From Ostreococcus lucimarinus (Eukaryota): a DNA stretch of 64,000 bases. This document shows, piece after piece, positions 2,937-6,902 of this stretch. The stretch lies in the NCBI GenBank assembly GCA_000092065.1, contig CP000589.1; one strand, 5' to 3'. Position 1 is the first letter of the stretch; each line of letters opens with the position of its first letter. The notes below the pieces were generated by a model. That model saw only the letters and a program-made list of their open reading frames with translations, did no database searches and was not told the DNA's origin. Both the position numbers and the translations under genes were made by a program.

Positions 2937-5900
2937 CTACGGCGCGGACGCTCCGGCGTTCGCGGCGTCGACGCCGGTGACGTCGCGCTTCAGGAGGTAG
3001 TGGGCGAATAAGGGTAAGTCTGGAAACGTGTGCGCGATGTAAGCCTCGACGATTTTGCGCGAAGACGTCCAAGGATCGGCGGCGGTGTCTTCGGGACGCA
3101 GGAGCACGGCGACGTTGGATCCGAGCGCGCGGAGCATCTCCGCGCGTTCGGCTTCGAGCGGCGGATGCTCGTGCATATTACGCGCGAAGCGCACCAGATC
3201 GAACAAACGATTGCCGTAAGAGTAATCCTTGGGTTCGTTTTGTCTCGGCGGAGGAACGACGTCGGCGGCGCGCTTGCCGCCGCGGCGGCGGTTGCGCTTT
3301 GAATTTGTCTTCGACGCAGCTTCCGCCGCGCGAGCCGCGCGGGCGTCTTCCCACGTCTGCTGCATGTTCGCCGTGCGTTGTGCGTACCTATCTGCGCGCA
3401 CTAGTAGAGATGGAACGACGAGAGACTTCCAGTTGCGAATCGATTGCGCCGCTCGCTCGGCTTGTCCAGGTCGCCCCTTCCAAACCGTCTGCGCGAGATC
3501 TGCTTCGTCCTTTTCCGAAAGAGAGTTCACGATGCGCCGATCGAAAATTTCTCGAACGGCTTCCATGCACTCTTCAACGTCCCAAAGCGCGGGGTGCTCG
3601 CAAACCTCCGTGGCGGTGGGACGCTCACGCGGATCCGGATCCAACATCCGGTGAAGGAGTTCGCGCGCCGCGACTGCGGTGTGCGACGGTAACATCGCGG
3701 TCTCGATCGCTTGAAGACTGAATTTGCCTTTTACGATGCGTTGATTTTCAAATCCAACGTCCAGCGCGGTGGATGCGCTCAGATCGAGTTCTTGCGTTGG
3801 GGATTTGTTTCGCGAATCCATCTTCCTCTCTTGCTTGTACGGCGATTGCAAACCAGTCATGATGGTGTACATGAGACATCCAAAACTCCAGACGTCAACC
3901 TTGGGCGTCAGGGGAGCGTTAAGCAACACTTCCGGTGGTCGACCTTGTAAACCAATGTTCACCCCGTACCCTTCAAAAGTTGTGAGCGAGTACGTGTTGC
4001 CATCCGTCGCCTTGTTTGCGTCCTTCAATCGCACCCCGAGGCCCAAATCCGCGAGCTTGAACTCGCCGTCCGCGCTCCGAAGGCAGTTGTCGGCTTTGAT
4101 GTCGTTGTGTGTTACACCGGCAGCGTGCACGTCTTCCACAGCTTGAGCGAGTTGTCGCACGGCATCCATGCGCTCGACGTGCGAGATCGCCGGCGCGCCG
4201 CCAGCAGTGCCCGCATTCTTCAGCCACGTCGCCAAAGACTCGCCGCACAGCTCCATGGCGGTGTAGATTGCCCCATCACCGCGGTCGACGTCAAGTTTAC
4301 TACCCAGTATATGCGTCGCCCGCGTGCTTCGCTCGTTCAAGTGCTTGTGAATGGCAATCTCTCTTTCAATCAATGACTTCATGTTGTCTCCGCGCTCGCC
4401 CGGCGGCAAGGGGATGCGCTTGATCGCGGCGTCGCGACGAACGACTCTGTTGCCCGCACCCTCGTCGTAATATCCCTTGAACACGACAGTTCCGAGCGAT
4501 CCTCGACCGAGAATTTCAGCCTCGTTATACCAAATATTACGTCCGGCGTTCACCCACCGATCACTATCCGAATCATTCCCAGACGTCGGCGCCGGTAAAA
4601 GTGAATCCGTGATTCGATGGGCACGAATGAACGCCTGTATCTGACGCTCCAAATTCTCTAGCTTCGTCTCCGCGCTACGCACAATGTCTTCGTCCACTCC
4701 CATATCTTTGGCTTGCGCGATTCGCTCGCGCAGCTTCACAGGGTCAACATCTTCTGCGGCGTGTAATAAATCTCTCGCCGCGCCTAGAGCGAGAACGCGC
4801 GCACGTCCAAGCTTGCTCGCCTTGGCTGCAGCGTCGACGTCCTCGGCATCCATTTGCAGCGCATCCATAAGCTCGGTAGAGATATCCTCTTCTTGTAATT
4901 CTTCCATGTTCTCATGCGACACTTGCAAAGCGCTCCCAGCCAGGCGCGCTTGGATGCGCGAAGAGAGCTCGTTCATGAGCTCCTCCATCTCCACCCCTTG
5001 CGCCTCGAGCGCCTGAGGTCCGCCCTCGATGGGCATGGGCGCCCCGGCGAACTCGTTGATGCGGTTGACTGTGTCTAAGAACGCCTGTCGGTGCATTTCT
5101 CCAAGCGCCGCGATTTGCTCGAGCTTTCCTAATTGCATACTAAACGCAGCCACGGACGGTTCGATTTGCGGCAGGTGTACTTCTGACATCCTTCCCTTGG
5201 CGTTCCACATCTCACGCAACAACACCTCAGCCTTGACCACGTCCGCATCGTCGCGTGTGTCCGTGATTTCTCTCGCGCGCGCCGTGAGCGCTTTCAGTTC
5301 AGCTCGAAGATCCGCCTTGCGCACCGCCGCTCTAAATTCGCGCAGCGCGTCGAAAATCTTTGTCACGGGCGGAAACACCTTCGCCTTGCCCTCGGGCGTA
5401 CCGTGGAACGCGATCAACTTGCGCTCTTCTTCAAGAATTTCTTCATCCGTCATCTCACCTCTAAGAAATCTGTGCGTGTGCTGCGTCGTCTCGACGATGG
5501 AATCACCGAACGATCTCGTCCTTGATCTCAAACGATTGATGAATCGCAAGCCACCAAAGATGGCGTTCATCAGAAACCATCGAGAATCGTGTTGCTTTCC
5601 TAAATAGGGCGCCGTATATTCATCAAACCACTTTCTCGCGCGCACGCTCGTCATCTCGCCAAACTTGTCGAGCTCACCCGCGGACATCATCTTCGTCACT
5701 TCCGGTAGCGTGAGGCCGTTGTGCGACCACTCGTTGAGCCACTGCTTTTGAATGTTGTCCAGTTGCCCGATGAAACGAGCGCTATGTTCTTCGATCGCAG
5801 CCGCACGCGTGAGATCGGTGAGATCGGACATGTACTCCTCCCACTGTTTTCCCACCGGCACGTTCGAACCGCGATGACCTGCAAATTCCAAGCCGCACAC

Positions 5901-6902
5901 GACGACGCGGACGTCGGTCGTCTTCGCTAATCGCAGCGCTGTCTCGATATCTTGCTTTATCATCTCCCGATTCTCCGGCGAATTGTTCACCGGAGGCAAA
6001 ACCCAAACGAATAATTGCGGCGATAAGCTATCGCTAAACTCAGAGAATGCGAGCTCGTGCATGGGGATGACCGTGATCGGCGTATCCGGTCGAGCGTCGA
6101 CGACGCGGCCCGATTCCTCCATGCGCCGGACTAAAATCTGATGCAAGCGTAGCCCTTCCCAGTCGCGCGGTAAGCCGGCGAGCGTCATGTACGCGTTCGG
6201 TCTGAACATCGATAACAAAGGCGAGTACCTCGCTCTCTTCGTCGCTTGCATGAGCAGCATGTTGGAGATCATGTTATCGAAGAGGGCCTCGCCGCGTTGC
6301 GTGAGCTCGATATCCATCGTTTTATTGCTTCGAACGTTGTACAGAAACGTTGATTTTCGCGCGGATCCTTGCGTAAACGTCAAGAACTTCGACGCGCTCC
6401 TAGATTGACCGACTATGGCTCCCAGAACGGCGATGTTTCCGCGCATGCCCTCCATCGCCGACGCGCTCAACCAGTTCCACAGCGCCGGCGCGAACGAAGG
6501 CGTGAGCGCCTCCTTCGCCACCGGTTCGCGCCCACCGTACCATCGCGCCAGCACTTTCGGCGCGCTCAGCTCGGGTTCGTACGTCTTCTGCACCGCTAAT
6601 CTATGCTCCGTCATCTCGTTCCCCGTGAGTTCCGAACTCGCCACGTTTTCCCGCGTCCAGTCGTAATCTTGCGCCAACCAACCCTTCAGCAGTTTCGACC
6701 CCGGTCTCGGCGTCTCCAACCCGAGCTCGCGCGCGCGCTGCGACTCAAAACTAGACGACGCCGACGTGGAGTACACCCCGCGCGGCGTCCGATCGCGCGC
6801 GCTCGTCGACGCGTCGAGCCCCGAGCGCGCGCGCGCGTCGACGCCGCCCGCCGTCTCGCGTCCCAGTCCCACCGCCGCGCGCGCCGCGCGACGACGCAGC
6901 AT
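2937..6902 (-). CDS. RNase L / IRE1-like protein. It has a degenerate (pseudo)kinase domain (aa ~795-1100) followed by a KEN endoribonuclease domain (aa ~1103-1305), preceded by a ~790-aa N-terminal region of unknown fold with a coiled-coil segment.
   Basis: Kinase motifs: Gly-loop 'LGRGSLGTVVFKG', VAIK-type 'AAIKRI', a catalytic loop 'THNDIKADNC' in place of HRDLKPxN, 'ADLGLG' in place of DFG, and 'VDVWSFGCLMYTIMTG'. KEN motifs: 'HPALWDVEECMEAVREIFDRRI', 'LFDLVRFARNMHEHPP' (RNxxxH catalytic motif) and 'AHTFPDLPLFAHYLL', which align to RNase L 'DLLKFIRNLGEH...FPDLVIYVY' and IRE1 'DLLRAMRNKKHHY'. ATG at 6900-6902. Confidence 0.75.
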   Translation of the reverse strand: MLRRRAARAAVGLGRETAGGVDARARSGLDASTSARDRTPRGVYSTSASSSFESQRARELGLETPRPGSKLLKGWLAQDYDWTRENVASSELTGNEMTEHRLAVQKTYEPELSAPKVLARWYGGREPVAKEALTPSFAPALWNWLSASAMEGMRGNIAVLGAIVGQSRSASKFLTFTQGSARKSTFLYNVRSNKTMDIELTQRGEALFDNMISNMLLMQATKRARYSPLLSMFRPNAYMTLAGLPRDWEGLRLHQILVRRMEESGRVVDARPDTPITVIPMHELAFSEFSDSLSPQLFVWVLPPVNNSPENREMIKQDIETALRLAKTTDVRVVVCGLEFAGHRGSNVPVGKQWEEYMSDLTDLTRAAAIEEHSARFIGQLDNIQKQWLNEWSHNGLTLPEVTKMMSAGELDKFGEMTSVRARKWFDEYTAPYLGKQHDSRWFLMNAIFGGLRFINRLRSRTRSFGDSIVETTQHTHRFLRGEMTDEEILEEERKLIAFHGTPEGKAKVFPPVTKIFDALREFRAAVRKADLRAELKALTARAREITDTRDDADVVKAEVLLREMWNAKGRMSEVHLPQIEPSVAAFSMQLGKLEQIAALGEMHRQAFLDTVNRINEFAGAPMPIEGGPQALEAQGVEMEELMNELSSRIQARLAGSALQVSHENMEELQEEDISTELMDALQMDAEDVDAAAKASKLGRARVLALGAARDLLHAAEDVDPVKLRERIAQAKDMGVDEDIVRSAETKLENLERQIQAFIRAHRITDSLLPAPTSGNDSDSDRWVNAGRNIWYNEAEILGRGSLGTVVFKGYYDEGAGNRVVRRDAAIKRIPLPPGERGDNMKSLIEREIAIHKHLNERSTRATHILGSKLDVDRGDGAIYTAMELCGESLATWLKNAGTAGGAPAISHVERMDAVRQLAQAVEDVHAAGVTHNDIKADNCLRSADGEFKLADLGLGVRLKDANKATDGNTYSLTTFEGYGVNIGLQGRPPEVLLNAPLTPKVDVWSFGCLMYTIMTGLQSPYKQERKMDSRNKSPTQELDLSASTALDVGFENQRIVKGKFSLQAIETAMLPSHTAVAARELLHRMLDPDPRERPTATEVCEHPALWDVEECMEAVREIFDRRIVNSLSEKDEADLAQTVWKGRPGQAERAAQSIRNWKSLVVPSLLVRADRYAQRTANMQQTWEDARAARAAEAASKTNSKRNRRRGGKRAADVVPPPRQNEPKDYSYGNRLFDLVRFARNMHEHPPLEAERAEMLRALGSNVAVLLRPEDTAADPWTSSRKIVEAYIAHTFPDLPLFAHYLLKRDVTGVDAANAGASAP

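Follow-up and report, generated by a model that had tools for sequence, protein, structure and literature searches.

A probable soluble kinase-KEN protein of the IRE1/RNase L superfamily with an orphan N-terminal module in Ostreococcus lucimarinus

To our knowledge, two switches have been worked out so far for proteins that join a protein kinase to a kinase-extension nuclease (KEN) domain: unfolded proteins in the lumen of the endoplasmic reticulum (ER), which act through IRE1, and 2′,5′-oligoadenylate (2-5A), which acts on the ankyrin repeats of RNase L. Kinase-plus-KEN proteins as a class are widespread in eukaryotes, with varied N-terminal regions (PMC10400998; PMC3710099). Ten clades of homologues with a kinase and the Pfam family PF06479 (Ribonuc_2-5A), collected at a PF06479 E-value of at most 1e-5, have been described (PMC10400998), and stand-alone KEN proteins have expanded in rice and Oikopleura (PMC3710099). 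RNase L itself is found in jawed vertebrates only and evolved when a kinase-RNase protein that already existed acquired ankyrin repeats (PMC10400998). Here we describe an open reading frame (ORF) within a 64,000-nucleotide stretch of the Ostreococcus lucimarinus genome (GenBank assembly GCA_000092065.1, contig CP000589.1; "the window", to which all nucleotide positions refer unless a contig is named). Its product is probably a soluble kinase-KEN protein of the IRE1/RNase L superfamily, known so far only from Mamiellales-type picoalgae, that would work as a signal-switched RNase. The ORF and the features of its C-terminal part are as follows.

2937–6902, minus strand: uninterrupted ORF of 1321 codons plus stop (Ostreococcus lucimarinus CCE9901 XP_001419845.1 / ABO98138.1 / UniProt A4S325).
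3588–4529, minus strand: Ser/Thr protein kinase domain of the non-RD type (HND), residues 792–1105 (Pfam Pkinase, E=4e-32).
2985–3596, minus strand: predicted KEN domain (HEPN-type), residues 1103–1306, from HPALWD to FPDLPLFAHYLLKR, with two insertions inside it (insert-excised Pfam search, hhalign, PDB profile search).
3165–3218, minus strand: putative RNase catalytic motif Y1229...R1241-N1242-x3-H1246 (SYGNRLFDLVRFARNMHEH), residues 1229–1246 (orthologue invariance and alignments).
3222–3383, minus strand: insertion 1 in the KEN domain, residues 1174–1227, low-complexity and net basic (+8), with KRNRRRGGKR (family alignment).
3066–3116, minus strand: insertion 2 in the KEN domain, residues 1263–1279 (NVAVLLRPEDTAADPWT) (family alignment).

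In the databases XP_001419845.1 is named only "predicted protein" or "protein kinase domain-containing protein", with the KEN domain unannotated, and a literature search found no paper citing the accession numbers of the 1321-residue protein. The genes flanking the ORF are likewise identical to O. lucimarinus CCE9901 entries, which bears out the Mamiellales-type green alga that the original prediction had guessed at. All of the strings quoted in the original prediction, which was made from the DNA sequence, are present in the ORF (FARNMHEH, HPALWD, FPDLPLFAHY, HNDIKADN, DLG, AAIK, GRGSLGT and VRVVVCGLEFAGHRGSNVPVGKQWEEYMSD).

That prediction had proposed a kinase followed by a KEN domain, and had expected the C-terminal third of the protein to match both Pfam models. 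The arrangement itself was borne out, and the Pkinase model matched the protein as it stands, but Ribonuc_2-5A rose above its gathering cutoff of 23.3 bits only once both insertions had been excised. The failure of PF06479 on the native sequence can be accounted for by these two lineage-specific insertions, which interrupt the KEN domain: after their excision PF06479 became the top match to the O. lucimarinus sequence with 26.1 bits (E 1.1e-5, profile positions 37–115 of 127), and the insert-excised orthologue P0006 scored 34 bits (E 3.7e-8, profile positions 12–117). Using hhalign, the insert-excised family profile matched the KEN domains of human IRE1, yeast Ire1 and human RNase L at 95.1% (E 3.4e-8, 122 columns), and matched 13 authentic IRE1 KEN domains from metagenome contigs at 94.8% (E 5.3e-8, 121 columns); with the unexcised profile the C-terminal half alone was aligned (82% and 32%). 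When the insert-excised KEN profile was searched against all PDB sequences there were only two matches, pig and human RNase L, both over the catalytic half of the domain.

Residues Y1229, R1241, N1242 and H1246 align with Y892, R905, N906 and H910 of IRE1 and with the RNxxxH motif of RNase L. All four are invariant in every orthologue, whether from Ostreococcus, from the Bathycoccus-like sequences or from a Micromonas-like fragment (YEPTLRDLFRFVRNVHEHP), and the flanking helices are invariant too, among orthologues whose identity in this region is as low as 25–31%. This conservation bears on the suggestion that the KEN-like region has lost catalysis and survives as a remnant, leaving the protein to act as a signalling kinase or scaffold only. 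A remnant might be expected to look as this domain does at first sight, broken by two insertions and with a native PF06479 score below threshold, but the retention of the four residues and their flanking helices at such divergence points to selection on catalysis, and we regard this explanation as very improbable indeed. We conclude from sequence comparison that a KEN/HEPN RNase domain is very likely present and under selection for catalysis.

Insertion 1 sits between "SLLxRAERY" and "SYG" and is approximately 55 residues long in Ostreococcus and well over 100 residues long in the Bathycoccus-like orthologues. Although the insertion is variable, a basic cluster inside it, adjoining the catalytic Tyr, is kept in every orthologue (KRNRRRGGKR in O. 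lucimarinus, RRERRKKKR in a Bathycoccus-like protein); this cluster could be an RNA-binding patch or a nuclear localisation signal. Insertion 2 (17 residues) follows "LRALG", a position at which the authentic IRE1 KEN domains of metagenome contigs L025 and L039 also carry insertions.

The part of the original prediction that found no support is the reading of the kinase as a pseudokinase of the RNase L kind. The HND and DLG changes on which it was based leave the catalytic residues untouched, which makes a pseudokinase unlikely: Lys828, Glu848, Asp934, Lys936, Asn939 and the Mg-binding Asp952 are all in place, as are the Gly-loop GRGSLGT, the PPE motif at E991, D1003 and R1094. Orthologues with as little as 28% identity still have the catalytic residues; the distant ones also keep HNDIKADN, and in the Bathycoccus-like proteins the DFG motif is canonical. 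Between DLG and PPE lies an activation segment of 37 residues that is rich in Ser, Thr and Tyr. Whole-protein phmmer searches of the PDB gave yeast and human IRE1 as the best matches (E=2e-13), with CDK6 close behind (1.3e-12), and the IRE1 alignment extends through the HPxxW motif into the start of the KEN domain, where HPALWD aligns with HPLFW of IRE1. Judged by its sequence, the kinase is non-RD, looks catalytically competent and resembles that of IRE1 more than that of RNase L. Immediately before the Gly-loop, a DSDSDS tract at residues 776–781 (4562–4579) forms part of a linker, SG-N/S-DSDSDRW, that is conserved in all Ostreococcus orthologues and may serve for phosphorylation or regulation.

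As had been predicted, the protein has neither a signal peptide nor a transmembrane segment. Over the whole protein the 19-residue Kyte-Doolittle mean never rises above 0.96, the best 10-residue hydropathy in the first 70 residues is 0.54, well short of a signal-peptide core, and no PQQ or luminal-domain family of Pfam gave a match. These features have to be set against the possibility that the protein is the lineage's own IRE1 orthologue. On that view it would have shed the luminal and transmembrane parts but kept a role in ER stress or proteostasis, and a partner acting through its N-terminal module might bring it to the ER. Several observations are in keeping with such an origin: IRE1 chains are the top whole-protein PDB matches, the kinase keeps all of its catalytic residues as IRE1 does, and no canonical Ostreococcus IRE1 turned up, in searches that could not show absence. 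A comparable case exists in plants, where Arabidopsis IRE1C, a recent Brassicaceae paralogue, is a kinase-KEN protein that lacks the sensor domain and is still a membrane protein. An orthologue of IRE1 would nevertheless have had to lose the signal peptide, the transmembrane segment and the PQQ-like luminal domain, and in the PDB the KEN profile is nearer to RNase L than to IRE1. In addition, as far as the available part of an Ensembl Plants survey goes, one protein with PF00069 and PF06479 is present per alga examined (PMC11566738), and that protein must be a different one, because PF06479 misses the 1321-residue protein. On this evidence we consider an IRE1 orthologue unlikely.

The ORF is one gene, as full-length orthologues, synteny and a complete transcript all show, and the N-terminal residues, which the original prediction had recognised might belong to a separate gene, are part of it. 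An identical 1321-residue ORF, flagged as complete, is present in an MMETSP transcriptome assembly. Seven orthologue clusters with 70–100% identity keep the entire architecture, with conservation unbroken across the junction in front of the kinase. An exhaustive search with the N-terminal profile found two distant full-length orthologues, P0105 (1461 residues) and P0106 (1292 residues), at approximately 28% identity. P0105 lies on a contig of 46% guanine-cytosine (GC) content with the gene order Peptidase_C12, PWWP, target and POLQ, which matches the order in the window, and a contig of 70% GC has the same neighbourhood with the orthologue split over reading frames. The synteny of a POLQ-like helicase/polymerase, the target, a PWWP/Tudor protein and UCH-L3 is common to the window and the Bathycoccus-like contig L003, while UCH-L3, PWWP and the target are retained in the Micromonas-like contig L002. 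In the latter, a polished long-read assembly of 70% GC, the orthologue (L002:4182-10057) lies in several frames and is called as at least five small genes; introns or assembly frameshifts could account for this splitting. We read the contigs of the distant orthologues as Bathycoccus-like and Micromonas-like from their composition and synteny. Orthologues, which the original prediction had proposed to look for in other Mamiellophyceae, are thus full-length in other Ostreococcus-like and in Bathycoccus-like genomes, with one fragmented Micromonas-like copy.

The exact protein sequence of the window is P0022. At residue 11 (6870–6872) it has Val, where P0001, the representative of the 90% cluster, from a metagenome scaffold, has Gly.

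Upstream of the kinase the protein consists of three regions.

6738–6902, minus strand: N-terminal leader, residues 1–55, variable in sequence and length, rich in Arg, Ala, Ser and Thr, with no hydrophobic core (composition alike in all full-length orthologues).
5718–6737, minus strand: family-specific N-terminal domain, residues 56–395, with a core at approximately 155–395 modelled as an alpha/beta/alpha sandwich (AlphaFold2 model, alignment).
4533–5717, minus strand: mostly helical region, residues 396–790, with one strongly conserved segment (WFDEYTAPYLGKQHD...RSRTRSFGDSIV), a stretch of acidic composition and the SDSDSD linker (model, composition, conservation).

The original prediction had noted that some 790 N-terminal residues contain no placeable motif and no ankyrin repeats, and both statements held up. 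Residues 1–788 matched neither ankyrin nor any other Pfam family at E≤10, and for residues 56–790 Pfam, NCBIfam, PADLOC and the PDB contained no sequence relative beyond generic kinase matches. An acidic coiled coil of approximately 240 residues had also been pointed out; residues 621–770 are acidic, with a net charge of −15, and rich in helix formers, and any coiled coil there is putative. When the N-terminal profile was searched with HMMER against all 1.84 billion representative proteins, 23 matches were found at E≤0.001, every one of them a member of the same family or a fragment of one; the N-terminal module is restricted to Mamiellales-type sequences. An AlphaFold2 model of residues 56–520, built from 13 sequences, shows a three-layer alpha/beta/alpha sandwich and, after it, long helices (residues 350–520). 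The mean predicted local distance difference test (pLDDT) is 66.8 and the predicted template-modelling score 0.65, with the core at approximately 155–395 reaching a pLDDT of 80–90. In this model the resemblance of the sandwich to known folds is generic and at the level of the fold. Within residues 56–395, G204, D209, N214, G243, E249, H254 and P275 are near-invariant, and one may speculate that D209, N214, E249 and H254 form a candidate binding site. No Walker A motif is conserved, and we therefore assign no function to the domain. Quite probably this module, made up of the alpha/beta/alpha domain and the long helical, partly acidic region, replaces the luminal and transmembrane sensor of IRE1 and the ankyrin sensor of RNase L.

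The original prediction had gone further and suggested an antiviral role. On this account the protein would be an RNA-decay enzyme switched on by a ligand, as RNase L is, and its N-terminal domain would detect a small molecule that comes from an infecting prasinovirus or is induced by the infection. The two proteins do share the logic of a soluble sensor, a kinase-like domain and a KEN domain, RNase L is the sole PDB match of the KEN profile, and defence systems have repeatedly used HEPN RNases as effectors (PMC3710099). However, the algal protein has no ankyrin repeats, no recognisable nucleotide-sensor fold and no degenerate kinase. Conservation of its N-terminal domain almost equals that of its kinase (mean column identity 81% versus 84%), unlike a fast-evolving immune sensor, and the gene is apparently single-copy in a conserved syntenic neighbourhood of housekeeping genes, which is not the pattern of an arms race. 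Scans of viral contigs, which returned generic kinases only, contained no relatives of the N-terminal domain, nor did viral structure models. An antiviral function thus seems improbable to us.

A further possibility, at odds with the cytosolic location that had also been predicted, concerns the leader, which has an amphipathic moment of 0.6–0.7 and, with its richness in Arg, Ala and Ser, may be an organelle presequence, a reading that its composition fits without being diagnostic. If it were a mitochondrial or plastid presequence, the protein could be an organelle-targeted enzyme of RNA processing or decay, and every full-length orthologue does begin with a variable, basic, hydroxylated, acid-poor leader of amphipathic potential. 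Many GC-rich Ostreococcus proteins, however, start in a comparable way, the conserved basic residues of insertion 1 look more like a nuclear-localisation or RNA-binding patch, and we know of no eukaryotic-type kinase-KEN protein in organelles. We give organelle targeting as little credence as an antiviral role.

In the likeliest mechanism, modelled on the two characterised kinase-KEN enzymes, a signal acting on the N-terminal module would cause self-association; the intact non-RD kinase would then bind nucleotide and probably trans-autophosphorylate its 37-residue activation segment. Back-to-back kinase-KEN dimers would complete a composite HEPN site (Y1229, R1241, N1242, H1246), which would cut RNA independently of metal to leave 2′,3′-cyclic phosphate ends. 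The sequences show the domain composition and the conservation of catalytic residues; that the protein is activated by oligomerisation and active as kinase and RNase is inferred, as are its substrates, its trigger and the compartment where it works. More speculatively still, and somewhat less likely than not, Mamiellales picoalgae may possess a third, independently built, ligand-gated kinase-KEN RNase, in which the orphan alpha/beta domain and helical stalk would sense a metabolic, organellar or viral signal and switch on RNA decay or unconventional processing outside the ER membrane.

Some of our results weigh against the soluble, signal-switched kinase-KEN RNase that we favour. PF06479 gave no match on the whole native protein, and the isolated C-terminus reached 13.9 bits (E 0.063), in a match confined to 18 residues at RNxxxH. 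When a profile was made of the last 207 residues in their native form, the PDB yielded neither IRE1 nor RNase L, only spurious matches to uL30 and OprJ, and the excision boundaries of the insertions were set with the IRE1 alignment in view. The AlphaFold2 model of residues 775–1321, built from seven close orthologues, had a mean pLDDT of 36.8 and was unusable, which leaves the KEN fold without structural confirmation, and the 55-residue insertion beside the catalytic Tyr could disturb the active site. The N-terminal model is of moderate confidence only and has no visible ligand site. Should the favoured reading be right, Ostreococcus, an ecologically dominant and genetically tractable alga, would offer a third input design: a conserved, soluble kinase-KEN protein whose N-terminal module is unrelated and of sensor size.

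Within the window, the syntenic neighbours of the gene are at 1–2668 (minus strand) and 7722–12457, and a UBC variant and an Arf-like GTPase come next. The POLQ-like gene at 1–2668 is cut off by the start of the window. At 15667–18831 (minus strand) an ORF of 1054 residues encodes a phage-type single-subunit RNA polymerase (Pfam RPOL_N and RNA_pol), presumably the nuclear-encoded organellar RNA polymerase. Other kinase-KEN proteins were encountered in the metagenome scan, including a fungal-looking IRE1 on contig L010. Four GC-rich marine contigs (GC 0.66–0.72) also encode a kinase-KEN protein (L038:281-3394, L036:2104-3837, L033:1781-3169 and L034:1884-3278), with a long C-terminal extension that contains a CCCH-like motif (CHGxRCAFAHA). 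The L038 copy, the sole near-complete one, has a transmembrane anchor, a non-RD loop (HADIKPSN) and a PF06479 score of 59 bits; a GC-rich picoalga may have this protein as its canonical IRE1.

Among described systems, IRE1/ERN1 (Ire1p, IRE1alpha and plant IRE1A/B) shares with the algal protein a Ser/Thr kinase followed directly by a C-terminal KEN domain with the Y...RNxxxH set, and also, to judge from the sequences, intact kinase catalytic residues. Unlike IRE1, the algal protein has no signal peptide, luminal sensor or transmembrane helix, and its N-terminal region is modelled as an alpha/beta sandwich and is not beta-propeller-like; it further differs in its HND catalytic loop, in the KEN insertions of approximately 55 and 17 residues, and in its unrelated N-terminal region of 790 residues. 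Arabidopsis IRE1C and the algal protein both do without the canonical unfolded-protein sensor, but only the algal protein has a large conserved domain in its place and no membrane anchor. With RNase L it has in common that it is soluble and that it combines a sensor region, a kinase fold and a KEN domain, with RNxxEH and TFPDL motifs, whereas it has no ankyrin repeats and its kinase is not degenerate. Since RNase L arose by ankyrin gain in vertebrates, the algal protein would be a parallel case to RNase L and not its orthologue. It differs from the homologues assembled in PMC10400998 in that it escapes a PF06479 search and in that its N-terminal module has no counterpart there. Surveys of IRE1 and RNase L relatives that are based on PF06479 overlook members with KEN insertions, and the diversity of KEN RNases in protists is therefore probably underestimated. 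By motif and whole-domain homology, the algal family appears to fit the KEN/HEPN superfamily, yet it is neither IRE1 nor RNase L. The kinase-KEN class itself was already known; what is new here is that a KEN domain with insertions, overlooked until now, is combined with a kinase of the non-RD type and an orphan N-terminal module.

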